Part shown: in pieces, positions 4,330 to 63,544 of the stretch
How the letters are laid out: each line of letters starts with the position of its first letter
Numbering within the stretch: position 1 is the first letter of the stretch
Source: an uncultured Flavobacteriales bacterium
GTDB lineage: Bacteria > Bacteroidota > Bacteroidia > CAIKAF01
Direction: 5' to 3'
DNA length: 64,000 bases
NCBI GenBank assembly: GCA_903837495.1
Contig: CAILUT010000005.1
Coordinates: 43,782 to 107,781, forward strand
The notes under the pieces: model-generated
Told to the model about the DNA's origin: nothing
The model's input: only the letters and a program-made list of their open reading frames with translations
The model's database searches: none
Translations under genes and position numbers: made by a program

Positions 4330-4473
4330 GGGGCGGCAGCCGGGCTTTCCGGGCTACTCCGCGGTCCAAAGCGGGCCGGTGCAAGCCCGGCAGTAGCTCC
4401 TCGCGTCGCTCTGCCGTGCCAACACCGGCAGCCGCTTTGGCCCTTGCGGGGTAGCCGCGTCAATCCCTGCCGC
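4330..4473 (-). repeat. GC-rich nested-hairpin intergenic element, copy A (inverted orientation)
   Basis: Ends GGGGCGGCAG...TCAATCCCTGCCGC. Internal reverse complement of the conserved core. About 70% GC against roughly 50% background. Confidence 0.65.
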
Positions 4474-4682
4474 GGGCGGCCTGGGTGAAAAACCAACAAT
4501 ATAGAATAGAGCCGCATGGGAACATCAAACACAATGTGTTGATTGCCAATTAATTAGACCTGCCAGCCTTGACAAAACAGGGAGATTGGCTTATTTTTGT
4601 TGGTTCAAAGAATCTAGGGAATACCGCAGCGCAATTGGGAGTTCCGCATCTCTGGATATTTTTCAAAATTAAAACGTCAAGA

Positions 4683-5402
4683 ATGGAAAAATTCAAGAAC
4701 AAATACCGCATTGCCTCGACCCGCGCCACATACTGGGATTATGGCTGGAATGCCGCCTATTTTATTACCATCATTACCCAAAATTGGTCTTGCTGGTTTG
4801 GCAAGGTGAAAAACAAAAAGATGGAATTATCAGACCTAGGCGCGTATGCAAATTCGTGCTGGTTGGAAATACCGAACCACTTCCCCTTTGTAGAATTGGG
4901 TGCTCATGTAATTATGCCAAACCACGTTCACGGCATTTTGATTATTAACAAACCGGTCGTAGAGACGCAATATTTTGCGTCTCCCGCCGGTAAATCAAAC
5001 CATAGCGACAACGTCGTAGAGACGCAAAATATTGCGTCTCCCGACGACAAATCAGATCGTAGCGACAACGTCGTAGAGACGCAATATTTTGCGTCTCCCA
5101 ACGGGAAATCAGACCGTAGCGACAACGTCGTAGAGACGCAAAATATTGCGTCTCTACAAACGCCACAAAACAAATTCGGGCCACAATCCCAAAATTTGGC
5201 GGCCATCGTTCGTGGATATAAAATAGGCGTAACAAAAAACGCCCGGTTGATTCACCCGAAATTCAAATGGCAACCCCGGTTCCATGACCACATTATACGT
5301 GATGAAAGGGCATTTAATGCCATTTCAAATTACATTTTAAAAACCCCGCCAAATGGAATTCCAATCGGTAGAGACGCACTATTTTGCGTCTCCCGCCGGT
5401 AA
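4683..5402 (+). CDS. REP-associated tyrosine transposase (RAYT; IS200/IS605-like HuH Y1 transposase) carrying an in-frame 68-aa REP-array insertion
   Basis: N-terminal YRIASTRATYWDYGWNAAYFITIIT, HuH motif VIMPNHVHGIL, then C-terminal WQPRFHDHIIRDERAFNAISNYILKTP (catalytic Tyr motif). Between the HuH and Tyr motifs sit four REP units translated as VVETQYFASP.../VVETQNIASP... Confidence 0.7.
   Translation: MEKFKNKYRIASTRATYWDYGWNAAYFITIITQNWSCWFGKVKNKKMELSDLGAYANSCWLEIPNHFPFVELGAHVIMPNHVHGILIINKPVVETQYFASPAGKSNHSDNVVETQNIASPDDKSDRSDNVVETQYFASPNGKSDRSDNVVETQNIASLQTPQNKFGPQSQNLAAIVRGYKIGVTKNARLIHPKFKWQPRFHDHIIRDERAFNAISNYILKTPPNGIPIGRDALFCVSRR
4956..5157. repeat. REP array (4 hairpins, alternating loop orientation, 53-60 bp period) inside the RAYT ORF
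   Basis: GTCGTAGAGACGCAATATTTTGCGTCTCC and GTAGAGACGCAAAATATTGCGTCTCTAC alternate. Inter-hairpin segments are near-identical (..AAATCAGACCGTAGCGACAACGTC). Confidence 0.8.
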
Positions 5403-5614
5403 TTCAAACCGCAGCGACAACGTCGTAGAGACGCACTATTTTGCGTCTCCCAACGAGAATTCAAACCGTAGCGACACCGTAGGGACGCACTATTTTGCGT
5501 CTCCCGCCGGGAATTAAAACCGTAGCGACACCGTAGAGACGCACTATTTTGCGTCTCCCAACGAGAATTCAAACCGTAGCGACACCATAGAGACGCAAAA
5601 TATTGCGTCTCTAC
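5368..5614. repeat. REP array (5 hairpins, period about 54 bp) at the 3' end of and downstream of RAYT
   Basis: GTAGAGACGCACTATTTTGCGTCTCC repeated four times, then GTAGAGACGCAAAATATTGCGTCTCTAC. Spacers are all about AATTCAAACCGTAGCGACACCGTA. Confidence 0.8.
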
Positions 5615-5661
5615 GGCGTAAAATCCCGCGAAATTGAATAAATTTGACCAAAATTATTGAC

Positions 5662-6039
5662 ATGAACGCACCAACAAATTGCAAGTTCTCGAAAGACCAC
5701 GAATGGATTAAATTAGACGGGGATGTTGCCATCGTCGGAATTTCGGAATTTGCGCAAGGGGAATTGGGTGATATTGTATTTATTGAAGTAGAAACCGTTG
5801 GTGAAAACATAGAAAAAGACGGTGTTTTTGGCAGCGTTGAAGCCGTAAAGACCGTTTCGGATTTGTTCATGCCGGTAGCTGGAGAGGTGCTGGAATTCAA
5901 TGAAAACCTAAACAACAATCCCGAGCTGGTAAACAGCGACCCCTACGGCGAAGGCTGGATTGTCAAGGTAAAAGTGAGCAATCCCGAGCAATTAAGCGCG
6001 CTGATGGACAGCGAGGCCTACTTGGCTTTTATTGGCTAA
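5662..6039 (+). CDS. gcvH: glycine cleavage system protein H
   Basis: [42 protein letters not shown]...[18 protein letters not shown] with the lipoyl-lysine motif. 126 aa. Confidence 0.9.
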
Positions 6040-6042
6040 GCC

Positions 6043-6471
6043 ATGTTCTGGCGGCACAACGGCATTGCTTTCTTTCTTACCGTTTTGGCTGGTAGTCTGT
6101 GTCTGATTCCCGGCAAAGATTTGACTGCGTCTCCCTTTGTGAGTTTTGATAAACTCGCACATCTGGCTCTGTTTACTCTGATTTCGTTGAGCTGGATGGT
6201 GGGGCTGCGCAAACAAAGTCGATTTGGATACCTGCGCGAACATTTTTTTCCCTTGGTTATTACCGCTGGGATTTTTTACGGAATCGCCCTAGAGCTTATG
6301 CAAGGAGCGCTTTTTGTGGACCGCTATGCCGACTGGAAAGATGCCCTGGCCGATGCTTTGGGAGTGCTGCTGGGAGCCCTTATATTTTTGGCAGTGTACG
6401 GAAAAATAGCCTTCCAAAACACCTCGCGCCGCAGCCTTCCGGGGCAATTGGTTGAACGTTTTTTGCCCTGA
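6043..6471 (+). CDS. VanZ family membrane protein
   Basis: 4-TM small protein with VanZ-like signatures (FDKLAHLALF...GALFVDRYADWKDALADALGVLLG). Follows gcvH, as is typical in Bacteroidota. Confidence 0.7.
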   Translation: MFWRHNGIAFFLTVLAGSLCLIPGKDLTASPFVSFDKLAHLALFTLISLSWMVGLRKQSRFGYLREHFFPLVITAGIFYGIALELMQGALFVDRYADWKDALADALGVLLGALIFLAVYGKIAFQNTSRRSLPGQLVERFLP

Positions 6472-6486
6472 AACGTAAAAACCCAT

Positions 6487-6508
6487 GAAACGCCTTGGCA
6501 AGTCCAAG
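6487..6508 (+). terminator. candidate rho-independent terminator after gcvH-vanZ
   Basis: GCCTTGG-CAAGT-CCAAGGC 7-bp stem followed by a weak T-rich tract. Confidence 0.35.
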
Positions 6509-6541
6509 GCAATGTTGTATCTTTAATCAATCTTTGTTGTT

Positions 6542-7887: not shown

Positions 7888-7960
7888 TTTTACTTTAAGG
7901 TGTAGGAGTGGGATTGCTAGGGCTTTAGTGAAATGAGGGCGCAGAACGATTGAGTGGCCT

Positions 7961-8103
7961 GCGGCAGGGATTGAAGAGGGTTGCCCGCAAGGTTGGCAGG
8001 GCCTGGCCCGCGTGGCGCGGAGGCGACTTTAGGAGCCCCCGCAAGCCCGCTGGGACAGCCCCTGGCAACCGCGGACTACCCCTGAAAGCCCAGCTGCCGC
8101 CCT
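7961..8103 (+). repeat. GC-rich nested-hairpin intergenic element, copy B
   Basis: GCGGCAGGGATTGAAGAGGGTTGCCCGCAAGG...GCGCGGAGGCGACTTTAGGAGCCCCCGCAAGCCCGCTGGG...GAAAGCCCAGCTGCCGCCC. Internal stem GGTTGGCAGGG/CCCTGGCAACC. Confidence 0.7.
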
Positions 8104-8146
8104 AAAGAAAATATGTATCGAAAGCTGTGAGAAGAGGCGCGGCCTG

Positions 8147-8803
8147 TTACTTTTTCAGCAATTCCGGGAAAAGCTTGTAGAATTTTTCCACCTTTGGCTG
8201 CACCACCATTTGACAATAGCCCTGATTGGGATTCCGCTGAAAATAATTCAGGTGTTCATCTTCGGCACGGTAAAACGCCTCAAAGGCCTTTAATTCGGTA
8301 ACAATGGGCGTATTGTAGATGCGGGCTTCGGTCATGGCGTTTAGAACTTCACGGGCCAGGGATTCCTGCTGGGAAGAGCGGTACAGAATAATGCTTCGGT
8401 ACTGGGTACCGATGTCGGCGCCTTGCCGGTTTAAGGTAGTAGGGTCATGGGTTTTAAAGAACACACCCAACAGCGTTTTCAAAGAAACCTGAGCGGGGTC
8501 GAAGACCACCTGAATGACCTCGGCATGGCCGGTGGCTCCGGAGCAGACCTGTTTGTAAGAGGGATTGGGATTTTGGCCTCCGCTGTAGCCGGGTTCCACC
8601 TTAAATACCCCTTGAATGGCAGAATAAATGGCTTCGGTGCACCAAAAGCAGCCTCCACCAAGGGTTATGGTATCGGTGATTTCAGTCCTGGGCGTAGAAT
8701 CGGAATTCATTTGATTGGCTTTTGCAGGTGAGCAAGAGGTGAAACAGAAGAAAAGGGCGGCTGAGCACAGCCCTAAAGTTGAAGAAAGAGGTAAATTAAT
8801 CAC
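8147..8803 (-). CDS. msrA: peptide-methionine (S)-S-oxide reductase MsrA (lipoprotein)
   Basis: GCFWCTEAIY active-site motif, MsrA core, N-terminal lipoprotein signal. GTG start at 8803. Confidence 0.9.
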   Translation of the reverse strand: MINLPLSSTLGLCSAALFFCFTSCSPAKANQMNSDSTPRTEITDTITLGGGCFWCTEAIYSAIQGVFKVEPGYSGGQNPNPSYKQVCSGATGHAEVIQVVFDPAQVSLKTLLGVFFKTHDPTTLNRQGADIGTQYRSIILYRSSQQESLAREVLNAMTEARIYNTPIVTELKAFEAFYRAEDEHLNYFQRNPNQGYCQMVVQPKVEKFYKLFPELLKK

Positions 8804-8814
8804 ATAAGGGAAAC

Positions 8815-8843: not shown

Positions 8844-8851
8844 CTGATTAA

Positions 8852-16007: not shown

Positions 16008-16904
16008 TTGAACATGTTGTTCGGAGCTCCAATTATTGACTTGTCAAAAATGGCCCAACTGGAGGCCCAAACTCCCAACTTAATTGTTTGGGCGGTTCCG
16101 GCCATGGTAATTTTCACCCTAATTGAAATCCTTTTTTCGTACCGAGACCAAAAAGGGTTTTATGAAAAGAAGGAACTGGCGGGCAGCATTTTGGTTGGTC
16201 TTGGCAACCTGTTCGTGAGTGCGGCACTAAAGGTGTCATTGCTTTTATTGGTGGTATGGGTTTACAACCAGCTTCCTTGGCGAATGGAATTAAACTGGTG
16301 GACCTTTCCTATTTGCTATGTTGTTTATGATTTCTGCTCGTATTGGGCGCACCGAATCTCGCATGAACAACGTTTTTGGTGGGCCACCCACGTGGCGCAT
16401 CATTCTGGCGAGCACTATAATTTGGCGGTGTCTTTTCGTTTAAGTTGGGTACAGCACATAAAAATTGTGTTTTTAGCGCCCGTATTGCTGATGGGTTTTC
16501 ACCCGATTGTGTTTTTTGTAACGAACCAAATTGCCGTTTTATTTCAGTTTTGGGTTCATACGGAATACATCCGGAAAACACATCCCATATTGGAGTACAT
16601 TTTGGCGACTCCGAGCAACCACAGGGTGCATCATGGGAGTCAGGAATGCTATATTGATAAAAACTATGGTGCCACCTTTATAGTTTGGGACCGCTGGTTC
16701 GGCACCTACGAACCTGAGTTGGAGCCCGTCAAGTATGGGTTAACCAAACCGATAGAGAACAAATGGAATCCTTTTTTTATAAATTTCCATGAATATATAG
16801 ACATTTGGAAAGACGTCAAGGCCGCAACGGGATTTCGGAGAAAATTGTATTATTTGTTTGGGTCTCCGTCAAAAATTGCGAAAGAAAAAGAACTCGCAGA
16901 ATAG
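16008..16904 (+). CDS. sterol desaturase / fatty acid hydroxylase superfamily membrane protein
   Basis: Histidine boxes HRISHE, HVAHHS and HRVHHG. Multi-TM. Confidence 0.75.
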   Translation: MNMLFGAPIIDLSKMAQLEAQTPNLIVWAVPAMVIFTLIEILFSYRDQKGFYEKKELAGSILVGLGNLFVSAALKVSLLLLVVWVYNQLPWRMELNWWTFPICYVVYDFCSYWAHRISHEQRFWWATHVAHHSGEHYNLAVSFRLSWVQHIKIVFLAPVLLMGFHPIVFFVTNQIAVLFQFWVHTEYIRKTHPILEYILATPSNHRVHHGSQECYIDKNYGATFIVWDRWFGTYEPELEPVKYGLTKPIENKWNPFFINFHEYIDIWKDVKAATGFRRKLYYLFGSPSKIAKEKELAE

Positions 16905-18162: not shown

Positions 18163-20212
18163 AAAAATGACCTCTGCATACCCCTTTCCCGCGGCCGGTG
18201 CCGGTTTGTTGTTTTTGGCAATATTGGCAGGCTGCAGCGGCATACAAAAGAAAGAAACAGATATGGCTATTGATGTTGCGTTGTTAGACAGTGCTTATAA
18301 ACCGACCGATGATTTTTTCGCTTTTGTAAACCAAAAGTGGATTGACTCCCACCCTATTCCTGCATCCAAAAGTTCTTGGGGCGCCTTTTATGAGCTTCGG
18401 GAACAGAGTTCGACGGCGCTTCGGGGCATTTTAGAAGAATCGGCCGAACAGGAGTACCCGGCTTCTGACCCGAGGTCAATTATTGGGGACTTTTGGATTG
18501 CGGCCATGGACTCGGCCCGGATTTCTGATTTAGGCTGGGCCCCTTTAATGCCCGACTTAAAGGCGTGGAAGCACGAAAGCGACCCAACGAAGCGGAGTAC
18601 TTTGTTGGCTATGCAACTAAAGCGCGGAGCGAAAGGCCCATTTGATGTTTATATATATCAGGATTTGAAGGATGCCACTCGCCAGGTATTGTATGTAAAT
18701 CAAGGCGGTTTGGGATTGCCTGACCGGGATTATTATTTTCGAACAGGGGAAAGGGCCGATGAAATTCGTGCCGAGTACCAATCCTATATTGGAAAGTTGC
18801 TTGAAAGCATTGGTTTGTACGATGCCTCTAACGCCAAGCGTTTATCGGCAGCGGTATATGGGATCGAGGTTCGGCTGGCCAAAGCATCTATGACATTAGA
18901 ACAACAACGGGACCCGTATGCCAGTTACCATCTGTTAAGTTTAGAAAAGGTGCAAAAAACCTATCCAGAATTGGATTGGAAAACCTTGTTCTTGCAGATG
19001 GGCATGGCCCCTACAGAATTGATTCTTGGGCAACCTGATTTTTTCAGGCAGCTGAACCAAGAGTACCGAGTGAATTCAGCTGAAATCTGGACCGCCTACC
19101 AGCAATTCCATTTGGCGAATTCGTTCGCCACAGAAATGCATCCTGAGGCGGAGGAATTGCATTTTGCGTTTTATGGGACATTTTTGAACGGCAAAAAAGA
19201 AATGGAACCCCGTTGGAAGCGAATGGCCGAATCGGCCGAGACCTATTTAAGGGATTTGTTGGGCAAAGAGTATGTAAAAAAGCATTTTGATGAGAGCGGG
19301 AAAGCCCGAGCCTTAGAGCTGGTAGAAAACCTAAAAAGTGCTTTGGCTGTTCGCATACAAAAACTGGATTGGATGGGCGACTCGACAAAGGTAGCTGCCC
19401 TTGACAAGCTGAACAAAGTCATGGTGAAAGTTGGATATCCAGACCAATGGAGGAGCTATGAAGGCTTGAAATTTTCTAAAACCGGTTTTTTGGAAAATGT
19501 TCGGGCGGCCGAAAGCTATGAGTTTTCAAGAATGGCGAAAAAGTTGGGCAAGCCTGTGGATCGGGCTGAGTGGTTTATGGGACCGCAAACGGTGAATGCG
19601 TATTACAATCCAACGTTAAATGAAATTGTGTTTCCTGCGGCTATATTGCAGCCCCCCTTCTTTTACCGGGAGGGCGATGATGCGGTAAATTATGGAGGAA
19701 TTGGGATGGTTATTGGGCATGAATTGACACATGGTTTTGATGACCAGGGCCGGTTGTTTGATGGCGATGGCAATTTGCGTTCTTGGTGGACGGCTCAAGA
19801 TGAAGCTGGATTTAAAGAGAAAACCAAGGCGTTTGTGGAATTGTACAACAGCTACGCCCCCCTGTCGAATGTGAACATCAATGGCACACTTACCTTGGGC
19901 GAGAACATTGCAGATCTTGGCGGGATGGTGATTGCCTGGGAGGCCTTTAAAATTGCCAGTGCTAAAAACCCGCAGCGTTCGGTTTCTGGATTGAGTCCAG
20001 AGCAGCGCTTTTTTCTAAATTTTGGTCAAATTTGGCGGGGGCATGACACCCCAAAAAGTTTAGAACAAAAACTGTACACCGATGTACATTCGCCGGCTAA
20101 ATATCGTGTAACTGGAGTTCTCTCGAATTTTGAACCGTTTTACGAAGTGTTTCAGGTAAAAAAAGGCGATGGGTTATTTATAGAACAAGGAAAGCGGTGC
20201 AGCATGTGGTAA
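18163..20212 (+). CDS. M13 family metallopeptidase (neprilysin/PepO-like), lipoprotein
   Basis: HELTHGFD zinc motif, GENIADLGG, NAYY. Start placed at ATG 18163, which gives lipoprotein signal MTSAYPFPAAGAGLLFLAILAGCSG. The upstream extension in the ORF track is unlikely. Confidence 0.85.
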
Positions 20213-30421: not shown

Positions 30422-30492
30422 TGCCCGATCGTCTAACGGTAGGACAGCAGTTTTTGGTACTGTTTGTGGTGGTTCGAATCCATCTCGGGCAA
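30422..30492 (+). tRNA. tRNA-Gln (anticodon UUG)
   Basis: Hand-folded: acceptor TGCCCGA/TCGGGCA, D-arm GTCT-AACGGTA-GGAC, anticodon stem GCAGT/ACTGT with loop TTTTGGT (U33, UUG), 4-nt variable loop, T-arm GGTGG-TTCGAAT-CCATC, discriminator A. CCA is not encoded. Confidence 0.8.
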
Positions 30493-44668: not shown

Positions 44669-45937
44669 TTATCTGGAATTTAGTTCGGTATAGCCCAGCA
44701 ATCGGTGTGCAATATCGCCGTTGTTTCGGGCATACACATAAATTTGATACTCGTTTTCGGTTTGGGCAAAATCGCCTTCGGTGGACATAAGTTCTGCCTG
44801 ATTTTTCCCCTTGGGCACCCAGCCATATAGGTAATTGTAGAGTCCTTGTTTTAGCGGAACAGACAGCATATATGCTTGGGTTCCGGGGTCATAGACCATT
44901 TTGTAGCGTACATCCAAATGTCCGTTGCTCATGCCGCCCAACAAATACACATCTCCATTTCCAAGGGGGGCCGAGGGCGCATAGATGAATTGGGTTTCGA
45001 TGTAATCTTCGTCCATGGAGCGGGTGTAATTTTGGCCTCTGAAATAAAAGCACTTTCCGTTCAAGTCGGGCAGGTCTCGGTAGGGGCTGCTGGCGCGAGG
45101 CAGTTCAGGCCGCAACAGGGCTTTCCATTTTCCTTTTTGTTCTTCGAAAGCCAGAACGGGCTCTCGAATTCCAATCAGGGATTTCAGGTCAAGGAGCCGA
45201 TACTGGTTGCCGCCACCAAAGGCATTTTCGCCACCTACGTGGTCAAAATACAAGGTTTTACTGTCAATAAACCGGGGTTTAATGTCCATTTTGGCGTTGT
45301 CCCAGCGGCGGTTTTGGGTGATGTGTACGATTAGATCTTCGTCGAGCAGGGGTAGATTTAAGCTGCCGGTGTTCAGGTTAAAAACCACCTCTTGGTGGCT
45401 AAGGCGAATCCGTGCCGAGCTGGCGTTTCGTACGGTGGCGGCCAGCTTAAGAACAGGTTGCAGCACAAAGCAGCGTTGCTGAAAAAGAATTTCGTCGGGA
45501 TTGTCGGTAGGAAAAACCTGAATCAGGTAATTGCCGGCCAAGGTAGGCCGCATGGATTCGTTTGGAAACCGGAACCAGTATTTGGTGTAGGGAGTGGTAG
45601 CGTTGTTTGAAAAGGCATAATCCAATATAGGTTGGATTTCGAAGCCCTGCATGTATTGCATAAAAAGCAGGTCGGTTTTTTTCCACATGGCCGAGCAGTG
45701 CAGCACCCGGTAACTTAAATCGCGGGTGTCGTGGTTCAGGTCGTCGAAGGAAACTTCAAGCTGCTGCTCGCTAAACAACTCCACAATAGGCGGCAGCAGG
45801 GGCTCCTCCGGTGGGTGAACCGAAGGACTCCAAATGCTGGACGAAAAAATCCGGTTTTCGGTTTGGGCCTGTATTTCAAACAAGGAAAGGCTTACAAGAA
45901 GCAGGCAAAACAAAAGCGTATTTAGAAAACGAGGCAT
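44669..45937 (-). CDS. hypothetical secreted protein (DUF; first gene of a 3-gene operon)
   Basis: Real start is MPRFLNTLLFCLLLVSLSLFEIQAQ at 45937. The 50-aa upstream extension in the ORF track is translation of GC-rich repeat copy C. Confidence 0.5.
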   Translation of the reverse strand: MPRFLNTLLFCLLLVSLSLFEIQAQTENRIFSSSIWSPSVHPPEEPLLPPIVELFSEQQLEVSFDDLNHDTRDLSYRVLHCSAMWKKTDLLFMQYMQGFEIQPILDYAFSNNATTPYTKYWFRFPNESMRPTLAGNYLIQVFPTDNPDEILFQQRCFVLQPVLKLAATVRNASSARIRLSHQEVVFNLNTGSLNLPLLDEDLIVHITQNRRWDNAKMDIKPRFIDSKTLYFDHVGGENAFGGGNQYRLLDLKSLIGIREPVLAFEEQKGKWKALLRPELPRASSPYRDLPDLNGKCFYFRGQNYTRSMDEDYIETQFIYAPSAPLGNGDVYLLGGMSNGHLDVRYKMVYDPGTQAYMLSVPLKQGLYNYLYGWVPKGKNQAELMSTEGDFAQTENEYQIYVYARNNGDIAHRLLGYTELNSR

Positions 45938-45967
45938 GGTATAAAGGTAAGGAGAGTTTGGGAATGA

Positions 45968-46118
45968 GGCGCCCCGGCCCCCGGATTGCAGCGGCAGGGG
46001 GCGGGTGCTGCGGGCAGGGCAGGGCCGCCGGGCGGAGGCGACTTTAGGAGCCCACGCACCGGCCAGCCCTGCCGCCCGCAGCACACGCACACTACAGCGG
46101 AAAGCCGGATAGGGCCCC
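45968..46118 (+). repeat. GC-rich nested-hairpin intergenic element, copy C (most diverged)
   Basis: Core GCGGAGGCGACTTTAGGAGCCCACGC. Long stem GGGTGCTGCGGGCAGGGCAGGGCC / GGCCAGCCCTGCCGCCCGCAGCAC. Sits in a divergent-promoter region. Confidence 0.55.
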
Positions 46119-46168
46119 CAATTAACAATTTATTTGCAGCAATTCTGCTGCGACTGCTTGGCATTCCG

Positions 46169-46176
46169 TACCTTTG
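46169..46176 (+). promoter_or_regulatory. Bacteroidetes -7 box TACCTTTG upstream of the LTD/T9SS-TBDR operon
   Basis: Exact TAnnTTTG 17 bp upstream of ATG 46193. Confidence 0.4.
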
Positions 46177-46192
46177 CCTCAAATACAATGCC

Positions 46193-47221
46193 ATGAAAAA
46201 ATACGTGCTTTCCTTACTTGCCTTTGGACTTAGCCTAAGCGCTTTTGCCCAAAATTGCTCCAATATTTTTATTTCGGAGTACGTGGAAGGGTCAGGCAAC
46301 AACAAAGCGCTGGAAATTTACAACCCAACCAACAACCCAGTTGATTTGGGCAACTATCGACTTATTCGGTACGACAATGGCAAGAATTTCGGGGAAGAAC
46401 TGATTACTCCCGATATGATTTTGAATTTTCCGGCAGGCACCCTGGTGGCTCCCAAAGACGTGCATGTTTTTGCTTTAAACCAAACAGACCCTTTGGGAAC
46501 CGGCCAAACCCAGCCCATCGATACCGCCCTGCAGAGCAAAACCGACGCGCTGTACTGCGACGGCTGCGCCCCCGGCAACAATTCTTGCCGCACCATGTGC
46601 TTTAACGGCGACGATGCCTTGGCCCTGCAGCAAATGAGCGAAGGCGGAACCTACATCAATGTGGATATTTTTGCCTGCGTAGGCGAACGCCCCAGCAACA
46701 ACACCGGCGGATTTTCGCCCACGGCCGGTTGGACCATCCTGCCCCCCTTCTCTTCTATGCCCAACAACTACGACAGCAATACCCAAGGACCTTATTTTCT
46801 GCAATATTGGACTCAAAACAAAACCCTGATCCGCAAACCAAACGTTACTCAAGGCGTTTCAGTAAACCCAAACCCACAGTCGTTCGACCCTTCGGTTCAA
46901 TGGGATTCCATTCCCGAAGATTCTTTCGATAGCCTTGGAACCCACGTGTGCGATTGCAATTTTATGACGCTGGAAACGGCTCCCGAGGCCTTTACCAAAA
47001 TTTCGCCCAACCCCACCGACAAGGTGCTGCATGTGCGGGCCGAAATCAACATGCGCCGCATTTTGATTCGGAATTTGACCGGTCAGGTCGTTGTGGCTCC
47101 GCTTGCCGTTTCAGGCCTTCAGGCCAGCTTAAACGTGGAGGCCCTAAGCTCTGCTATGTATTTGATTGAAATTCAGTACGAAAGCGGTTTGGTGCGCAGC
47201 CAGCGTTTTTCTAAACGGTAA
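46193..47221 (+). CDS. lamin-tail-domain (LTD)-like secreted protein with T9SS type-A C-terminal sorting domain
   Basis: Signal peptide MKKYVLSLLAFGLSLSAFAQ. NCSNIFISEYVEGSGNNKALEIYNPT LTD signature. C-terminus ISPNPTDKVLHV...MYLIEIQYESGLVRSQRF is a Por tail. Confidence 0.65.
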   Translation: MKKYVLSLLAFGLSLSAFAQNCSNIFISEYVEGSGNNKALEIYNPTNNPVDLGNYRLIRYDNGKNFGEELITPDMILNFPAGTLVAPKDVHVFALNQTDPLGTGQTQPIDTALQSKTDALYCDGCAPGNNSCRTMCFNGDDALALQQMSEGGTYINVDIFACVGERPSNNTGGFSPTAGWTILPPFSSMPNNYDSNTQGPYFLQYWTQNKTLIRKPNVTQGVSVNPNPQSFDPSVQWDSIPEDSFDSLGTHVCDCNFMTLETAPEAFTKISPNPTDKVLHVRAEINMRRILIRNLTGQVVVAPLAVSGLQASLNVEALSSAMYLIEIQYESGLVRSQRFSKR

Positions 47222-50047: not shown

Positions 50048-50485
50048 ATGAAAAATCTCACCCTTTTCCTGCTGTCGGTGCTGCTGGCTTCGGCTTGTTC
50101 ACCAGAAGATATGGCCCTGGAGAAATTGCAAGGCCGCTGGCAGGCGCAAAGCTTGTCGCATCCGGATTCTGTTTGGCTAAAGCGGTTCGACACATGCGGG
50201 ATTGAGCTGGTATTCTTTCCCTGCGCCCAGCCGTACACGGCGACCTGTTCCCTGCAAATCCGCGAGCAAGGGCAGGGCGGATACCTGTCGGTGGACACGC
50301 TAAAGTACACGATTAAAGGCGATGAGCTGGCCTTTGTGAATGAGGCCTCAAAACCTAAGTTGCTGTATTTTAACAGCTTACTTCGGCTTCGCCGGTTTCG
50401 TTGGAGCTTAGCCACCGAATCGCAGTTGGAATGGGCACGCATTGACGCCACGGTGGTTGAATTTCGGTTTCAACGCATAGATTAG
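50048..50485 (+). CDS. hypothetical lipoprotein
   Basis: MKNLTLFLLSVLLASACSP lipobox. 145 aa. Immediately downstream of the TBDR. Confidence 0.5.
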   Translation: MKNLTLFLLSVLLASACSPEDMALEKLQGRWQAQSLSHPDSVWLKRFDTCGIELVFFPCAQPYTATCSLQIREQGQGGYLSVDTLKYTIKGDELAFVNEASKPKLLYFNSLLRLRRFRWSLATESQLEWARIDATVVEFRFQRID

Positions 50486-50492
50486 GGAATTT

Positions 50493-50634
50493 GGGCGGCT
50501 GCGGGCTTTCACCGGTAGTCCTCGGTTGCCGGTGGCTGGCCCAGCGGGTTTGCGGGGGCTCCTAACGTCGCCTCCGCACCACGCGGGCCAGGCACCGCCA
50601 CCCTGTGGGCTACCTGGTTCAATCCCTGCCGCAG
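50493..50634 (-). repeat. GC-rich nested-hairpin intergenic element, copy D (inverted orientation)
   Basis: GGGCGGCTGCGGGCTTTC...GGCTCCTAACGTCGCCTCCGC...GGTTCAATCCCTGCCGC. Confidence 0.7.
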
Positions 50635-50863
50635 CGGCCTCCATTGAAACGTGTTTTCTGTTCCATTGTTTGCCTCAAACCGCAGCAGCTCGACGGCCTA
50701 CATTTTAGGCCTTTCACCCACTTTGGGCCGCTGGACATACCTGGGGGGCCTTTTGCCCATCGGCTTTTCTTGTGCATGCCATCCGATTGAACAAAAAAAC
50801 ACGCATTCCACTTTGGGAATCAAATAAATTACAATAATTTAACACTCGGTTTTCAATCCCAAT

Positions 50864-51727: not shown

Positions 51728-51745
51728 GCATCCCATCTTTGCGGG

Positions 51746-52621
51746 ATGAAAGCTGCGGTTTGGGCTCTGCTCGTGGTTAATTTATTGTACGGCATCAACT
51801 ATGGAGTGGCCAAGTCGATCATGCCCGAACCCCTGCATCCTACCGGAATCATTTTTATGCGCTCGGCCGGAGCCCTTCTCCTATTTTGGATTGTTGCCCT
51901 AAGCCGCCCCATGGAACGCATTCAAAAAGGCGATTGGCTCCGGCTGCTTCTATGTGCTCTGTTTGGTGTTATGCTGAACCAAACCTTGTTTTTTGAAGGG
52001 CTTAACCGAAGCAATCCCATTGAATCTGCCTTGGTAATGACCGTCAGCCCTGTGTTGGTGTTTTTGTTTTCAGCGCATGCCGGATTGGAGAAGATGCAAA
52101 AAACAACTTGGGCAGGAATTCTGCTGAGCGGTGGCGGGGCTGCGGCCCTAATCCTTCATCGGCAAGAAGGCCTGGTATTTTCGCAAAGCAGTGGATTTGG
52201 GAATTTATTGATTTTCATCAACGCCGCCTCATTCGCCCTTTTTTTGGTTTTAGTTAAACCCTTAATGCAAAAATACAGTCCCATAACGGTTATGGCTTGG
52301 GTATTCACCTTTGGCATGCCCATGACAGCGGTGTTGGGCATTCCCGATTTGGCGGCAACCCCGTTGTTGGAACTTCCTGCAGGGGTTTGGTGGGCCGTTG
52401 CCTATGTGGTTATAGGCGTTACTTTTATAGCCTACCTACTGAATGTTTTTGCATTAAAACGGGTAAATGCAAGTTTGGTAAGCGCATTTATTTATTTGCA
52501 GCCGGTTGTGGCGGGCATGTTGCAAGCGTTTGGCGGGAAACTTGACTTTTCTTGGACCTTGGCTTGGTCCTGCGCAGCGGTATGTATAGGCCTATTTTTG
52601 GTAGGTAGAGCATCCAAATAA
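51746..52621 (+). CDS. DMT superfamily (EamA-like) transporter
   Basis: 10 TM helices, two EamA half-domains. 291 aa. Confidence 0.8.
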   Translation: MKAAVWALLVVNLLYGINYGVAKSIMPEPLHPTGIIFMRSAGALLLFWIVALSRPMERIQKGDWLRLLLCALFGVMLNQTLFFEGLNRSNPIESALVMTVSPVLVFLFSAHAGLEKMQKTTWAGILLSGGGAAALILHRQEGLVFSQSSGFGNLLIFINAASFALFLVLVKPLMQKYSPITVMAWVFTFGMPMTAVLGIPDLAATPLLELPAGVWWAVAYVVIGVTFIAYLLNVFALKRVNASLVSAFIYLQPVVAGMLQAFGGKLDFSWTLAWSCAAVCIGLFLVGRASK

Positions 52622-52698: not shown

Positions 52699-52736
52699 TT
52701 TAAAATGGGACTGCATCAAAACAACGGTGCGGTGAG

Positions 52737-52879
52737 CGGCAGGGATTGAGCAGGGTTGCCCGCAAGGGTGCTGACAGGGGGCCCGCGCGGCGCGGAGGCG
52801 ACAGCAGGAGCCCCCGCAAGCCCGCTGGGCCCGCTGTCAGCAACCGCGGACTACCAGCGAAAGCCCGCCTGCCGCCCCC
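52737..52879 (+). repeat. GC-rich nested-hairpin intergenic element, copy E
   Basis: GCGGCAGGGATTGAGCAGGGTTGCCCGCAAGG...GCGCGGAGGCGACAGCAGGAGCCCCCGCAAGCCCGCTGGG...GAAAGCCCGCCTGCCGCCCCC. Stem CTGACAG/CTGTCAG. Confidence 0.7.
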
Positions 52880-53650: not shown

Positions 53651-56230
53651 ATGAGTTTTCGTTTGCTTTTTCTTCTGCTCTTTGCCTTGCCCGGGTTGGC
53701 TAAAAGCCAAACCACCGTGGTTCGTGGAATGGTGTACGATGGCGACCCCTCGGTCGCAAAAAAAACGCCCTTAATCGGCGCCAATGTTTTGCTTAAAGGA
53801 ACACAAATAGGTGCGATTACCGATTTAGAAGGGCGGTTTGAACTAAAAACCGACCAAAAGCCCAGCTATGTTCGCATTCAAATGCTGAACTACGCCGACA
53901 CCCTGATTAAAATTCGGCCAGGAACCGTAAACGATGTCAAAATCACCTTGCCAATGACCGGCATTTCCATCAAGGAATTTAATTTTAAGTACAAACGAAC
54001 CCGCAACCCCGCGCTGGTGGTTATTGATTCGGTAAAAAAATACCGCCGCGAAAACGACCCCTTTCGCTTTGAAAGCGTTGAAGCTACGGTTTACGTTAAA
54101 AACAAACTGGACGCCTACAACCTGCCCGAAAAAATACGAAAATCCAAGGTGGGTAAAATTTTCCAGTCATTCTACGACCTCGGATACCAAGACACCCTGC
54201 GCGGCGACACCAATGTGTACTACCCCTTTATGCTCATCGAAATGGTTTCAAACATCCACCGAAAACGTGGATTCTCCATCCGAGAGGTCATTCACAAATT
54301 TGAAATTACCGGAGTTGAAAACGACAACTTCGCCACCATGCTGGGCGCCACCTTCCAAAACTTCAATTTTTACGACGACAACCAACTGATTCTTGGAAAA
54401 AACTTTGTAGGCCCCCTGTCGCCCTTCGGCTCGGCATACTACAAATACGTTTTGGAAGATTCGTTGATGATTGGCAACATGCGCTGCTACGAAATTTCGT
54501 TCCGCCCCCTCGAGGCCGTTCCCCGCGAAATGGTGTACGACGGTAAAATGTGGGTGCACGACAAAACCTGGGGCGTGCGCAAAGTAGAACTAAAAATGAA
54601 CCGAAAAGCCAATGTGAATTTCATCGCCGGCTTCCGCATCAGCCAAGAATTTGAACTCGACAGCGCCAACCAAACCTGGATCCTACGCCAAGACAACGCA
54701 TCGCTCGACATCAACCCCAAAGATTTCGTGGATTTTACCCTGAACATCGGCGACAAAGACACCAACTACCAAATTGTACTGCACCGAACCCGGCACTTTA
54801 AAAACTACATTTACAACCAACCGCCCTCTTCCATTTTTCCTACTCCAGGGGCCGAGGTTACCATCTTAAACAATGTGCACAAAAGCAAAGCCGAGTGGGA
54901 TTCCCTACGCCCCATTGCCCTGAGCGGCTCGGAAGGAAAAATCGACAGCATTACCGAAGACCTGAAGAAAAACACCATTTTTCGTTCCCTGTACCGAATC
55001 GGCGATTTGGTGGCCTCTGGATTTTGGAACTTCGGTTGGGTTGGCATTGGCCCCATTTATGAACTCTGGTCTATGAACGAAATCGAAGGCCACCGCATCA
55101 AATTCGGCGGACGCACCTCCGATTCCATTTCCCGGCGGTTCTTCCTTGAATCCCACATCATTTACGGCACCCTTGACCAACGGTTCAAATGGGATTTCTC
55201 GGGCATTTACCACATAAACAAAGACAAAGACCCCTGGCGGATGATTGGCTGGAAATTCCGGCAAGACATCGAACAATTGGGCCTGTCCACCAACCAATGG
55301 CGCCCCGACAACCTGCTGGGCACTTTCCTTCGCCGCCGCCGCCTGGCCGACCTTTCGTACATCGACGAAGGATTTGTTTACTATGAACACGATTGGTTTA
55401 CCGGACTAAACAGCAAAATCACCGTCAACTGGATGCGCGTGTACGACACCGGAACCCTGCGCTTCGGCTTGCTCGACCCCCAAAATCAAATCAACGCCTA
55501 CCTTCCCAATTTCGCCCGGGCCGAAATACGCCTAGAAACCGAATTCGCCTATGGCCAACAATGGCTGCGCGGCCGAGTAAAACGCCGGCCCTTGCGCGGA
55601 GAATATCCCGTCGTAAAACTGGAATATACCTTGGGAGTAAGCGGAGTTCTTGGCTCCGATTACAACTACCACGCCTTACGCTGCTCCATCGCCGACCGCT
55701 TCCGCATTCGCCCATTGGGATATACCGATTGGGAAATCAGAGCCGGTAAAATCTTCGGGCAAATCCCCTACCCACTCATGGAAATCCACCTGGGCAACGA
55801 CACCTATATGCTCGACCGCTTTGGGTTTAACCTGATGAATTATTTTGAATTTGTGAGCGACCAATGGGTTACGGTTCGATTTGAACACTTTTTTGATGGG
55901 TTGTTCTTCAATAAAATCCCCGGACTGCGCAAACTAAAGTGGCGCGAAACCATCGGAGTTCGTGCCGCCCTAGGCAGCATCAGCTCTGAAAACCGACAAT
56001 ACATGGCCCTGCCCCCAAACACCTACGAACTGGTGGATCAACGCACTGGCAACATCATGCCTTACGTTGAAATGAACGTAGGCATCGAAAACATTTTTAA
56101 TCTCCTTCGCTTCGATTTCCACTACCGATTTACCCACCAAAATGGGCCAGACCCCCTAAATCCAGGCAAAGACCTGTACCCCGGTGCTCCAAATTGGGGC
56201 ATTACCGCTCAAATTTCAGTAAAGCTGTAG
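53651..56230 (+). CDS. DUF5686 + carboxypeptidase-regulatory-like domain protein (Bacteroidota outer-membrane associated)
   Basis: Signal peptide. N-terminal CarbopepD_reg ([42 protein letters not shown]). About 860 aa with the DUF5686 architecture. Immediately precedes lptB. Confidence 0.65.
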
Positions 56231-56232
56231 CG

Positions 56233-56973
56233 ATGGAGCTGAGAACCGAAAATTTAGAAAAGTCCTACCGCGGCCGATCCGTGGTAAACCAAGTCAGCAT
56301 TCATCTGAATCAAGGCGAAATTGTAGGCCTGCTAGGCCCCAACGGGGCAGGAAAAACCACCACTTTCTATATGGTTACGGGCATGATTGCCCCCGATGCC
56401 GGCCGCATTTTTTTGAACAACCAAGACATCACCGGCTTGCCTATGTACCAGCGCGCCCGCCGCGGCATTGGCTACCTGCCGCAAGAGGCTTCCGTTTTTC
56501 GAGGACTCAGCGTCGAAGACAACATCTTGGCCGTTTTAGAACACCTGCCGCTCAGCAAAGCCGAACAACGCGAGCGCTGCGAAACCTTGCTGCACGAATT
56601 TGGACTGAACCGCGTACGCAAAACCAAAGGCAATTTGCTTTCGGGGGGCGAACGGCGCCGCACCGAAATCGCTAGGGCCCTCGCCACAAACCCCGGATTC
56701 ATTCTCCTAGACGAACCCTTCGCCGGCGTGGACCCCATCGCGGTCGAAGACATCCAATCCATTGTGTTTGCCCTAAAAGAACGCAACATCGGCATTCTCA
56801 TCACCGACCACAACGTGCAAGAAACACTATCCATCACCGACCGTGCATACTTGCTCTTCGAAGGCAAAATCCTAAAAGCCGGCAGCGCCAGCGAATTGGC
56901 CGAAGACGAGCAGGTCCGCCGCGTTTACCTTGGCCAAAATTTCGTGCTCAGCCCACGCAATCCACGGACTTAA
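56233..56973 (+). CDS. lptB: LPS export ABC transporter ATP-binding protein
   Basis: Walker [15 protein letters not shown] signature LSGGERRR, Walker [13 protein letters not shown]. 246 aa. Confidence 0.9.
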
Positions 56974-57005
56974 TTCCCTTTTTTTTCTTTCTCTTTTGGG
57001 GGGCG

Positions 57006-57134
57006 GTTGCGGGCTTTCACAGGTTGTCCGCGGTTGCCGGGCATTGCCCCAGCGGGCTTGCGGGGGCTCCTAAAGTCGCCTCCGCGCCACGCGGGGCAAG
57101 CCCCGCCACCCTTGCGGGCAACCCGGTTCAATCC
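57006..57134 (-). repeat. GC-rich nested-hairpin intergenic element, copy F (inverted orientation)
   Basis: GGGGGGCGGTTGCGGGCTTTC...GGCTCCTAAAGTCGCCTCCGC...GGTTCAATCCCTACCGC. Confidence 0.7.
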
Positions 57135-57189
57135 CTACCGCAGGCCACCCAACCCCTTTCTACTCAAAATTTAAAAAATAGGCCTTTTG

Positions 57190-57225: not shown

Positions 57226-57227
57226 TA

Positions 57228-60629: not shown

Positions 60630-60693
60630 ACTCAAGGGCTTTGAGTAAAAGTATTGAATTCCAGTGTAAACACCACCTTCTTTACAGGCTCAA

Positions 60694-63180
60694 TCAACTC
60701 GGTATAGGCTTGCTTGAAGCAGGAGGCATTAGTTGCATCGCTCCTTTCACTTGGGTGCCAAGCAAGGCATATTGCAGCACCTGCTCCATGGTGCTAACGT
60801 ATTCAAAATGAATGCCGGTAAGGTAAGAGGGCTCAATTTCCTCAACATCTCGGCGGTTGTCTTCGGCCATTACAATGGTTTGAATGTTCGCCCGCTTGGC
60901 GGCCAGCACTTTTTCTTTAATTCCGCCCACGGGCAACACTTGTCCGCGCAGGGTAATTTCGCCGGTCATGGCCAGTTTTGGCCGCACTTTGCGTTGGGTA
61001 AACGCCGAAGCCAAGGCTGTAAGCATGGTTATACCAGCCGAAGGACCGTCTTTGGGTGTGGCCCCTTCGGGCACGTGCAAATGCACATTCCAATTGTCGA
61101 ACACCTCATGCGGTATTTTTAGTCGGTCCGCTTTGCTTTTTAGGTATTCAAGGGCAATATGGGCCGATTCTTTCATAACGCCCCCCAGGTTTCCGGTTAA
61201 GGTAAGCCGGCCCTTGCCTCGGCTTAAGCTGGTTTCAATAAAGAGAATGTCGCCCCCCACGGCGGTATAAGCCAAACCCACCACCACTCCGGCCTGTTCG
61301 TTGTTCTCGTATTTTTCTTTGGGTAAAGGAGGCCCTAAAATTTTGCTGACCTGTTCTTTGCTCAATTTCGCATGGAAATACTGTTCAGAGGCGGCAGCCA
61401 CAGCCGCTTTTCGAACCAAAGCAGCAATTTTACGCTCCAGGTTTCGAACTCCGCTTTCGCGGGTGTACGATTCAATAAGGAATTCCAAAACCGATTTGCT
61501 AAGCTGAATGGCGTTTTTTTCCAAGCCATGTTCTTTCAATTGCCGGTGCAACAGGTGTTTTTTGGCAATTTCTACTTTTTCTTCTACCGAATAGCCGCTG
61601 ATGTGGATGATTTCCATGCGGTCGCGCAGCGCAGGTTGAATGGATGACAGGTTGTTGGCGGTGGCAATGAACAGAACCCGACTAAGGTCAAAATCCAAAT
61701 CCAAGAAATTGTCGTGAAAGCTGTTGTTTTGTTCCGGATCCAACACTTCAAGCATGGCGCTGGAAGGGTCTCCATGCACATCTCGGCTCAGCTTGTCGAT
61801 TTCATCTAAAATAAAAACGGGATTCGCCGTAGCCGATTTTTTAAGGCTTTGCAAGATTCTGCCCGGCATGGCACCAATATAGGTGCGGCGATGTCCTCGA
61901 ATTTCGCTTTCGTCCCGCAAACCGCCCAAAGACATTCGGGTGTACTTGCGGCCTATCGCCTCGGCCACCGAACGGCCCAAGGAGGTTTTGCCGACTCCCG
62001 GAGGTCCCGCCAAGCATAAAATGGGAGCCCGCATGTCGCCGCGAAGCTTCAACACCGCCAAGTGTTCTAAAATCCGCTCTTTGACCTTTTCCAAACCAAA
62101 ATGATCCCTGTCCAGAATTTTCCGCGCCCGTTGAAGGTCAAATTGATCGTTAGAATAAACCGACCAAGGCAGATCGGTCATAAACTCCAGGTAGTTCATT
62201 TGAACCGAATAATCGGGCGCCATGCTGTTCATGCGTTCCAGCTTGGCCAACTCTTTCTCAAAGGTTTTTTGTACGGCTTTGCTCCATTTTAGCTTGCTTG
62301 CCTTTTTACGCAGTTCTTTGATGTCAATCGTTTCTCCATTGCCCAGTTCCTCTTGAATTTGCCGCATTTGTTGGTGCAAAAAATACTCCCGTTGCTGTTT
62401 GTCCATGTCCACCCGCACCTTGCTTTGAATTTGGTTTTTCAACTCAAGCAGCTGAGATTCTTTGTGCAAGGCCTGAAGCAACACGGTGGCTCTTTCTTTT
62501 AAGTCCCGCACCTCAAGCATGGCTTGCTTTTCTTCCATGGAGTTGCTTAGGTTGGAAGAAACAAAGTGAATTAAGAACGAGGGACTCTCAATGTTTCGAA
62601 TGGCGAAAGCCGCTTCGCTGGGCAGGTTGGGACTGGCTTGAATGATGTCTAAAGCCAGGTCTTTGATCGAGGAAACCATGGCGTTGAATTCCGAATCGGC
62701 CTCTTCGGGCGTTCCTTCCTCAAAAATGCTGGCCTGGGCGGTCAAATACGGTTCCTCGCTTAAAATCGCTTCAATTTGGCAGCGGCGTTTGCCTTGAATA
62801 ATGGCTGTGGTGCTGCCGTCGGGCATGCGCAGCATTTTCAAGATGCTGGCCACCGTACCAATTTCAAACAGGTCAGATTGGCTAGGGTCTTCTACCTCGG
62901 CATCGCGCTGGGCCACCACACCAATAATGCGCTTTCCTTTGTAGGCATCGCGGATCAACTTAATGCTTTTGTCTCGGCCCACTGTAATGGGAATAACCAC
63001 TCCGGGAAACAACACCGTATTGCGCAGGGGAAGAATCGGCAGTTCTTTTGGGATTTCCGACACCTCCAAATGCCCTTCCTCTTCGGTGGTCATTAAGGGA
63101 ATAAAATCTGTGTCTTCGCCAATCAAATGATATGTCATATTGTCCGTTTCGTGGTAAATGTACGGAGCTTCAAGCGCCAA
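60694..63180 (-). CDS. lon: endopeptidase La (Lon protease)
   Basis: LON N-terminal domain, AAA+ Walker [11 protein letters not shown]-terminal proteolytic domain [11 protein letters not shown] with catalytic Ser. About 828 aa. Confidence 0.9.
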
Positions 63181-63249
63181 CTTGTCGCGTGCCGATGTAA
63201 ATATCAGGAGTTTTAATGCAAATCCCTGATATTACATATCCCGTGCCAA

Positions 63250-63388
63250 GTAGAGCCGCAAAATGTTGCGGCTGATTTGCGGTGGAGACGGAAAATGTTG
63301 CGTCTGATTTGCGGTGGAGACGCAAAATATTGCGTCTCTACTGTTCCTTGATCATCAAAGGTGGAGACGCAAAATATTGCGTCTCTAC
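63250..63388. repeat. REP hairpin cluster 3 (4 copies, 31-47 bp period; first copy carries a compensated stem variant GAGCCGC/GCGGCTC)
   Basis: GTAGAGCCGCAAAATGTTGCGGCTG; GGTGGAGACGGAAAATGTTGCGTCTG; GGTGGAGACGCAAAATATTGCGTCTCTAC twice. Confidence 0.75.
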
Positions 63389-63420
63389 AGGCGATAAACG
63401 GCCACGATGCGCGGCAGGGA

Positions 63421-63544
63421 TTGACGCAACTACCCCGCAAAGGTGCCGACGGCTGGCCCGCTAGGTGCGGAGGCGACGTGAGGAGCCCCCGCAAACCAGC
63501 TGGGCCAGCCTTTCGGCACCTGCGGAGTAGTGCGGAAAGCCCGG
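63421..63544 (+). repeat. GC-rich nested-hairpin intergenic element, copy G
   Basis: GCGGCAGGGATTGACGCAACTACCCCGCAAAGG...GTGCGGAGGCGACGTGAGGAGCCCCCGCAAACCAGCTGGG...GAAAGCCCGGCTGCCGCCCCCC. Stem GGTGCCGACGGCTGGCCC/GGGCCAGCCTTTCGGCACC. Confidence 0.7.

Follow-up and report, generated by a model that had tools for sequence, protein, structure and literature searches.

Long, GC-rich Flavo-1 hairpin repeats in uncultured aquatic Bacteroidota and their possible nature as REPIN-like mobile DNA

Seven GC-rich hairpins occupy intergenic positions in a stretch of 64,000 nucleotides from an uncultured Flavobacteriales bacterium (contig CAILUT010000005.1, positions 43,782 to 107,781; the whole of this stretch is referred to as the window), and they raise the question of which family such repeats belong to, and whether they act as RNA or as DNA. 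A preliminary description, made from the letters of the window alone, had considered a structured RNA, a terminator module and a miniature inverted-repeat transposable element (MITE), and had assigned the hairpins to no described family. The Flavo-1 motif (Rfam RF01705; Weinberg 2010, Genome Biol 11:R31) is a multi-copy hairpin of unknown function in Flavobacteria, of which the genomes of F. psychrophilum and F. johnsoniae each contain many copies (Weinberg 2010), and the literature regards it as a presumed small RNA (sRNA) without known function. This paper describes the elements of the window as, very probably, a long, GC-rich subfamily of the Flavo-1 structured interspersed repeats of Flavobacteria and Bacteroidota. 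The overall explanation favoured here, with a probability of about 0.5, is that this branch of Flavo-1 is also a mobile DNA hairpin that resembles the REP (repetitive extragenic palindromic) and REPIN elements.

The exact three-block pattern GGATTG..GCGACNNNAGGAGC..GAAAGCC matches the window seven times, with zero matches expected (100 shuffles), and a covariance model (R1) for which 72 non-redundant copies were used likewise recovers all seven copies at 54.5-154 bits, while pattern and R1 scans of the 64-kb window found no eighth copy. The copies lie within about 15 nt of where the preliminary description had put them, and copy G begins earlier than given there (63406). The copies, with neighbouring open reading frames (ORFs) where these define their position, are as follows:

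Copy A, 4329-4478, minus strand: R1 115 bits, pattern match, fold of -95.9 kcal/mol (z -6.5)
Copy B, 7956-8104, plus strand: R1 154 bits, convergent genes on either side
Copy C, 45971-46120, plus strand: R1 54.5 bits, in a divergent intergenic region
Copy D, 50491-50637, minus strand: R1 139 bits, carries GGTAGCCCACAG and CGAGGACTAC
Copy E, 52731-52879, plus strand: R1 135 bits, downstream of ORF 51746-52621
Copy F, 56999-57146, minus strand: R1 152 bits, 3' end 26 nt from the stop codon of ORF 56194-56973
Copy G, 63406-63555, plus strand: R1 142 bits, 3' end about 9 nt from the stop codon of ORF 63564-63965 (minus strand)

The GC fraction of the seven copies is 0.71-0.77 versus approximately 0.49 for the window, and their density amounts to about one copy per 9 kb. 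Alignment of the seven supports the shared termini and core proposed earlier for six of them; copy C represents a divergent subtype with GGCCCCCGGATTGC ... GAAAGCCGGATAGGGCC (also written CCGGAUUGCAGCGG ... CAGCGGAAAGCCGG). Copy A belongs to a subtype with apical GAGCGAC-GCG-AGGAGCU, and a RAYT-like gene (4683-5402) starts 205 nt beyond its 5' end, in divergent orientation. A distance of 43 nt separates the 3' end of copy B from the end of ORF 8147-8803 on the opposite strand, and the 3' end of copy D is about 6 nt from the stop codon of ORF 50048-50485. Orthologues were found for several copies among the sampled loci (L numbers): for copy B in L092 of a Lake Tanganyika metagenome-assembled genome (MAG), at the corresponding position and with 91% identity; for copy C in L052, in a 92% alignment across window positions 44807-46661 that includes the copy; for copy E in the metagenome contigs L094 and L101; and for copy G in L022 (95% identity).

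Every window copy folds into a single long hairpin, with folding energies between -80 and -96 kcal/mol that correspond to z-scores between -4.1 and -8.1 relative to shuffles. The repeat unit is about 145 nt with the ends (SGCYY)GCGGCAGGG ... CTGCCGCCC, which is where the similarity of the closest paralogues stops, their common sequence being confined to the stretch from GCGGCAG to CTGCCGCCC. From base to apex the rod consists of:

Tier 1 (base): outer stem GCGGCAG/CUGCCGC
Tier 2: platform 5'-GGG-A-UU-GA / GA-AA-G-CCC-3', with GGG/CCC, an A·G mismatch, two U-A pairs and a tandem G·A
Tier 3: covarying stem above the tandem G·A
Tier 4: semi-conserved GUAG-C-CCGC-AA-GG / CC-GCGG-A-CUAC, with a conserved C·A juxtaposition and an AA bulge
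Tier 5: freely covarying stem of about 20 bp
Apex: GGC-GA-C-NNNR-G-GA-GCC, with a second tandem G·A

In these folds the inner stem GGTTGCC/GGCAACC of the preliminary description turned out to be mis-paired, as GGGTTGCC pairs with the GGACTACCC-type segment and GGCAACC with the next segment inward. The covariation of the stems that it had reported is real: RNAalifold predicted 49 pairs from the seven copies alone, 21 of which show compensatory changes, and in the R1 alignment of 122 copies 30 of the 34 modelled pairs have changes on both sides (754 cells). Paired cells account for 96.3% in that alignment, versus 73.7% with shuffled partners and 29-50% when the columns are slid by 1-3 positions, and a plain MAFFT alignment still has 27 of 34 pairs compensated. 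The basal platform GGG-A-UU-GA ... GA-AA-G-CCC is invariant or nearly so across the 122 copies. Moreover, the 22 copies found by R1 only, and not by the pattern, retain GGGATTGA, GGCGAC and GAAAGCCCG, and the conservation of these motifs is therefore no artefact of the way in which copies were collected. The hairpin structure is under strong constraint.

With respect to the family, the Rfam Flavo-1 model returned none of the seven window copies, neither at its gathering score (42 bits) nor at E<=10, and none on five small copy-bearing loci or on copy C searched alone; nor did any other Rfam family match the window copies at either threshold. The elements nevertheless correspond to a described family, contrary to what had been supposed: their basal loop (GGGAUUGA/GAAAGCCC), second-tier blocks (GGUAGCCCACAG/CGAGGACUAC) and apical loop (GCGAC..GGAGC) match published Flavo-1, and the basal architecture <<<-<<---<< ... 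>>--->>->>> is identical in the Rfam consensus, the published seeds and the window family. For example, the blocks GGTAGCCCACAG and CGAGGACTAC of copy D are identical in F. psychrophilum Flavo-1 seeds, and seeds like GCGUGAGGGAUUGCAGCGGUAGCCCACAG...GUGCGAGGACUACAAGCGGAAAGCCCGACC have whole blocks in common with this copy. The published seeds form a single hairpin with a variable apical extension to about 150 nt (Weinberg 2010, supplement); the long ones (142-149 nt) have the apex AGCGAC-NNNN-GGAAGCUC, to be compared with GCGAC-NNN-RGGAGC in the window family. Two sampled loci, L084 and L087, carry GCGACCAGCGGAAGCC, and the U-A to A-U covariant GAUA/GAUAGC of Flavo-1 seeds is seen again among the 22 copies found by R1 only, in L008, and in the copy of a Luteibaculaceae genome (L105). 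Finally, a homologue in Flavobacterium ichthyis (L073:1085-1235), distant from the window family and of 48% GC, is detected by R1 at 49.3 bits (E 1e-9) and is aligned over the full length of the Flavo-1 model, with an 87-nt apical insertion, at 27.7 bits (gathering 42; local E 5e-4). On the strength of the common platform, blocks, apex and covariant, and of the F. ichthyis homologue, which scores with both models (with Flavo-1 below the gathering score), the window family is assigned to Flavo-1 as a branch, with the high confidence expressed above. A custom model of nine short Flavo-1 seeds found zero window copies, and since an apical insertion of about 90 nt probably exceeds the hit length of that model, this result does not count against homology.

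Besides these blocks and the same covariant, the window family and Flavo-1 resemble each other in their single hairpin, in the basal GGG/CCG-A-UU-GA(N), (N)GA-AA-G-CCC/CGG, in the GGUAGCCCACAG / CGAGGACUAC tier as found in F. psychrophilum and F. johnsoniae seeds, in a U-rich 5' flank and an A-rich 3' flank, in high copy number, and in their occurrence in Flavobacteria. They differ in that the window family is about 145 nt long with 70-77% GC, whereas the Flavo-1 consensus is 76 nt (seeds 58-149) and AT-rich; in the additional outer stem GCGGCAG/CUGCCGC and GC-rich covarying stem of about 20 bp; and in the origin of the window family from uncultured aquatic (lake, river, Caspian) Bacteroidota. 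Elsewhere in the window, a weak and short Rfam Flavo-1 match at 16111-16180 (25.1 bits, local E 0.004; AT-rich and unlike the main family) and a weak match to the seed-based model at 19237-19315 (12 bits, E 0.65; AT-rich, inside a long ORF) are probably due to chance.

A pattern scan of a collection of species-representative genomes matched at least 93 sequence blocks, and among the matches listed nearly all came from four aquatic MAGs, namely Lake Tanganyika VGMT01, La Plata CAIKAF01 (labelled Flavobacteriales), Caspian JAQCBQ01 and CAYTJB01. R1 recovers a large family, with at least 122 copies, spread over four or five related genomes of aquatic Bacteroidota, in 708 kb of sampled sequence. 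The mean pairwise identity of the copies is 78% (range 67-100%), and the window genome and VGMT01 have 78-95% nucleotide identity over syntenic stretches. Zero copies were found in viral contigs and in phage and plasmid collections. The second type of distant homologue, besides that of F. ichthyis, is a variant in Bacteroidales MAGs, with GGGAUUGG ... GGAAAGCCC, non-complementary GUGGAAUGGAAC loops in both arms and a GGCGACGGCAGGAGCC apex. In L098 it makes up the 3' part of a larger repeat (about 560 nt) that is present twice (2325-2890 and 5611-6176), 3.3 kb apart and with 96% identity, and the variant occurs also in L024, L095 and L097; Rfam gave zero matches on this 560-nt repeat.

The genomic placement of the family was classified for 119 full-length copies, 102 of which have an ORF on both sides according to crude ORF calls: 40 lie between convergent genes, 26 are co-directional in sense and 26 co-directional in antisense orientation, and 10 lie between divergent genes. 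The ORF context bears out the earlier statement that the window copies sit at gene 3' ends and convergent junctions, with copy C between divergent genes. The two flanks of the element are not alike, the 3' flank being 44% A and 8% G and the 5' flank T/G-rich, and the two ends also differ in what they face. Of 115 copies, 76 have their 3' end turned towards the stop codon of a gene on the opposite strand, at a median gap of about 20 nt; in about 50 copies the 3' end lies within 30 nt of the stop codon, often in the arrangement ...TGA-TTTTT-element, as compared with only about 15 copies that have their 5' end within 30 nt of a gene end. The 3' end of the copy in a distant Luteibaculaceae MAG likewise faces an opposite-strand stop codon. 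Moreover, all five adjacent doublets are head-to-head, so that each 3' end faces the flanking gene. The family thus displays a one-sided target preference next to stop codons.

Comparison of related genomes revealed a considerable turnover of copies. Orthologous intergenic sites are often occupied though their flanks are only 70-80% identical, and positional orthologues at such sites are often 52-72% identical with 8-13 fully compensated pairs, each of them having an 80-97% identical relative elsewhere, mostly a paralogue in its own genome. Some other orthologous copies are 90-95% conserved versus 77-88% for the coding flanks, and presence or absence of a copy differs between related genomes. 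The family behaves as a DNA repeat that is mobile or convertible and has a one-sided target preference. A classical MITE was rejected, as junction direct repeats were at the level of shuffled flank pairs (mean 4.83 versus 4.69), giving no target-site duplication, no matching autonomous element was found, and the ORFs between paired copies encode housekeeping functions; the MITE option of the preliminary description is accordingly abandoned. Complementarity of the flanks specific to individual copies was not above the shuffled-flank control either.

Individual loci illustrate differences between genomes. The intergenic region that follows a tRNA gene in the window (30422-30492; 58.5 bits) is 75 nt long and element-free, and the region after the orthologous tRNA gene in the Tanganyika MAG VGMT01 (L078 2215-2516) is 301 nt long and holds an element. 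Relative to window positions 63250-63360, the same MAG has an extra 1.6 kb bounded by inverted copies (L022 5711-7380), which contains two small ORFs encoding secreted or lipoprotein-like products and a second, inverted element, where the window has a REP array only. In the region between prfB and a RAYT gene, L107 (2500-2960) has kept only the 15-nt termini of the minus-strand copy that is present in L026 (4470-4640); between these termini stand about 320 nt of other sequence that include a complete plus-strand copy, which amounts to a nested replacement.

The RAYT-like gene near copy A deserves separate consideration. ORF 4683-5402 (plus strand) encodes a RAYT-like transposase of the Y1/HUH type, which has NHVH, WQPRFHD and YI..P motifs; homologues of it in L076 and L026 (4780-5412) score above the cutoff of Pfam Y1_Tnp, and its database relatives are named 'REP element-mobilizing transposase RayT'. 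Y1_Tnp genes were found with an E. coli RAYT query and then confirmed by Pfam, and an IS608 TnpA query gave zero matches in 820 kb. Positions 4243-5611 of the window constitute a complete 'REPtron', in which the RAYT-like gene is accompanied by arrays of a small double-foot REP, GTAGAGACGCAAAATATTGCGTCTC(TAC) / GTAGAGACGCAAnAnTTTGCGTCTC(TAC): an in-frame array within the gene, between the HuH and Tyr motifs (4956-5154; 57 nt x 3.5 copies), and flanking arrays at 4243-4299 (18-nt period) and 5368-5611 (54-nt period). The miRNA-like Rfam matches at 5030-5163 coincide with these small REP hairpins. Such in-gene and flanking REP features have been reported for RAYT subclass 2.4 (Quentin 2018). The true GTAG REPs of this genome are a separate, low-copy family of 22-28 nt. 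Three small GTAG-type REPs with a 32-nt period are located at 63253-63385, directly upstream of copy G, and the same REP also adjoins long elements in L022, L066 and L076; overall this REP is rare (22 matches, 4/88 loci). At three independent RAYT loci (that of window copy A together with L066; L026; L076), the 5' end of an element or a fragment of it lies 100-210 nt upstream of the RAYT start; in L076, an isolated truncated 5' arm (GCGGCAGGGATTGACGAGGCTACCCCGCAAAGG; 3693-3735), followed by a small REP, lies within the REP cluster upstream of the RAYT gene. The prfB-RAYT intergenic region has kept an element in five genomes, in either orientation. Of 12 further RAYT loci, four positional orthologues were positive and eight independent loci negative.

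The mechanism proposed is that of a non-autonomous mobile DNA element resembling REPs and REPINs, and its chance of being correct is put slightly below even. A trans-acting enzyme would read the hairpin in the single-stranded DNA of one particular strand, and only lineages in which the hairpin and both G·A loops are preserved could give rise to new copies, from which covariation between subfamilies would follow. Insertion would proceed without target duplication and with the A-run on the 3' side, the target in practice being the T-rich tract after the stop codon of a converging gene or else a downstream gene's A-rich leader. With time, the copy at a site would be replaced or converted, and any effect on the stability of mRNA 3' ends would be secondary. 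RAYT-type Y1/HUH enzymes are obvious candidates for the trans-acting function, the link to RAYT being a lead only. More speculatively, and with clearly less confidence, Flavo-1-type rods might be a distinct class of REPIN-like mobile DNA hairpins and not RNAs, in which the G·A loops would serve as recognition or cleavage sites for a single-stranded DNA enzyme (a Bacteroidota RAYT/HUH transposase like that next to copy A, or an enzyme so far unlinked to repeats) and insertion would take place at the T/A-run by stop codons.

Several points weigh against the mobile DNA hairpin. Strand-specific loops and conserved tandem G·A motifs, of which the element has two, are typical of RNA. The named strand of the distant homologues (F. 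ichthyis and the Bacteroidales variant) is more stable than its complement by 7-17 kcal/mol, which implies that these homologues make use of G·U-type pairs. The genes between paired copies have housekeeping functions, with no transposase among them, and no clean pair of an empty and a filled site was recovered, the post-tRNA regions of the window and the Tanganyika MAG being too diverged to define a junction. The window RAYT gene has small GTAG REPs of its own on its flanks and even within it, and these are the cognate repeats to be expected for it; at eight RAYT homologue loci in other genomes no adjacent element was present; and F. psychrophilum, which is rich in Flavo-1, is not in the published RAYT/REP table. 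To these are added the crudeness of the ORF calls behind the context classes and the fact that copies from closely related genomes are non-independent observations.

A role as RNA is the main rival, in the form of many small RNA genes, or of a cis element in the 3' untranslated region whose two tandem-G·A platforms bind a protein or which protects the 3' ends of mRNAs; duplication of a useful module would then account for the number of copies. This explanation is considered unlikely overall, and the least unlikely of the rivals: the tandem G·A and A·G non-canonical motifs exist on one strand only, the named strand is clearly the more stable one in distant homologues, copies are enriched at gene 3' ends (the 40 of 102 classifiable copies between convergent genes), some orthologous copies are better conserved (90-95%) than their coding flanks (77-88%), and the motif was classed as a likely RNA from its covariation (Weinberg 2010). 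That one particular single strand matters is firm, and it is the nature of this strand, RNA or single-stranded DNA, that we infer. Among 4014 pair cells of the window family, G·U pairs (46) are barely above A·C (34), and 31 Flavo-1 seeds have 19 G·U versus 12 A·C. In RNA families G·U is normally far commoner than A·C. The orientation relative to flanking genes, a check proposed in the preliminary description, revealed no transcription bias (26 sense and 26 antisense copies in co-directional regions), and the choice between DNA and RNA that it had left open now leans towards DNA. Orientation is also weakly associated with local GC skew (odds ratio 2.4, p 0.02-0.004), which is not relied on given the non-independent copies and short blocks; the cumulative GC skew of the window (1-64000) itself rises to about 30 kb and then falls, a turn that may reflect a shift from mostly plus-strand to mixed-strand genes and not a replication landmark. 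The Bacteroidetes -7 box TAnnTTTG stands at -20 to -16 of only 5 of 117 copies, and no position of the 5' flank carries more than 0.5 bit of information; an independent sRNA gene with its own promoter was rejected on the ground that a box at fixed distance is this rare. An intrinsic terminator was rejected as well, and with it the earlier 'terminator module', as a U-tract 3' of the hairpin is absent on both strands. The 3' flank is A-rich and the 5' flank T/G-rich, and therefore either strand reads U-rich, hairpin, A-rich. In the F. psychrophilum transcriptome, Flavo-1 loci are found in sense or in antisense orientation to transcripts, and many show no transcription (PMC9723704), and the replacement of positional orthologues by other family members also argues against an RNA. 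Integron attC sites, retrons, tracrRNA and omega-RNA were dropped from consideration, in view of the mixed orientation and the lack of an array and of an adjacent integrase, reverse transcriptase, Cas or TnpB gene.

Two further explanations keep the element in DNA. In one of them, which is judged the least probable of all, it would be a non-mobile site selected by the host, a cruciform or hairpin to which a nucleoid, topoisomerase or recombination protein binds, by analogy with a proposal made for BIMEs; selection would keep it at many intergenic positions, and gene conversion would make the copies uniform. The occupation of the same intergenic sites between genes of only 70-80% identity, the greater likeness of copies within a genome than of positional orthologues, the Watson-Crick-dominated pairing and the head-to-head adjacent doublets are all consistent with such a site, whereas the copies lack regular spacing (those of the window are confined to about 4-8 kb and 46-64 kb), vary in presence or absence among close relatives, and have strand-specific conserved loops that a protein binding duplex DNA could do without; the explanation also lacks a known candidate protein. 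The other is a specific version of the favoured explanation, in which the rods would be the cognate REPINs of the nearby RAYTs, cut and mobilised by the window RAYT (4683-5402) or by one of the L026 type. The elements or fragments upstream of the RAYT start at three independent loci, the element in the prfB-RAYT region of five genomes, and the report that Bacteroidetes RAYTs of subclass 2.6 have, in their flanks, unusual secondary structures that include a 122-nt hairpin (Quentin 2018) point in this direction. It remains improbable, only a little less so than the host-selected site, given that none of the eight RAYT homologue loci elsewhere has an adjacent element, that the double-foot GTAG REPs on both sides of and inside the window RAYT gene are a hallmark of subclass 2.4, that the orientation of the element in the prfB-RAYT region varies between genomes, that the loci were fetched for containing the element and are thus subject to ascertainment bias, and that the published RAYT/REP table is without the Flavo-1 motif.

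The elements can also be compared with known repeats. As in REPs, REPINs and BIMEs, the elements are extragenic and high-copy, lie at gene 3' ends and convergent junctions (often 15-20 nt from stop codons), form a compensated hairpin, have no target duplication, occur as inverted doublets and are homogenised within genomes, and RAYT genes are present in the same genomes. They differ from classical REPs, which measure 20-40 nt and have a 5' GT[AG]G foot, in being a single 145-nt rod with conserved internal loops, in having GUAG/CUAC only as an internal covarying tier and not as a 5' foot, and in a RAYT association that did not generalise. The MITE-like repeats that are palindromic over their whole length, namely the ERIC/IRU elements of enterobacteria, the Correia elements of Neisseria and the Rickettsia RPEs, are likewise imperfect intergenic palindromes of 100-150 nt in either orientation, which can be co-transcribed and affect mRNA. 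However, those elements have terminal inverted repeats and are conserved at the level of sequence, Correia elements with a TA target duplication, whereas the window family has no duplication and a low identity (mean 78%, down to 52%), with strict conservation of structure and loop motifs.

Flavo-1 is among the most populous sRNA families in Rfam and an orphan with respect to function, and the Rfam model misses its GC-rich branch entirely. This long form constitutes an unusually clean data set of over 100 diverged copies, in which covariation is complete, the ends are sharp and orthologous sites are available from several genomes. Repeats as dense as these, about one copy per 9 kb, will fragment assemblies and seed spurious ORFs in MAGs of freshwater Bacteroidota. 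Taken together, strong constraint, indifference to orientation, a one-sided target and turnover probably recast Flavo-1 as a mobile DNA hairpin. If true, this would provide a mechanism for an orphan Rfam family, and an 'RNA motif' defined by covariation would be a DNA element, for which concrete substrates and candidate enzymes are now available to test.

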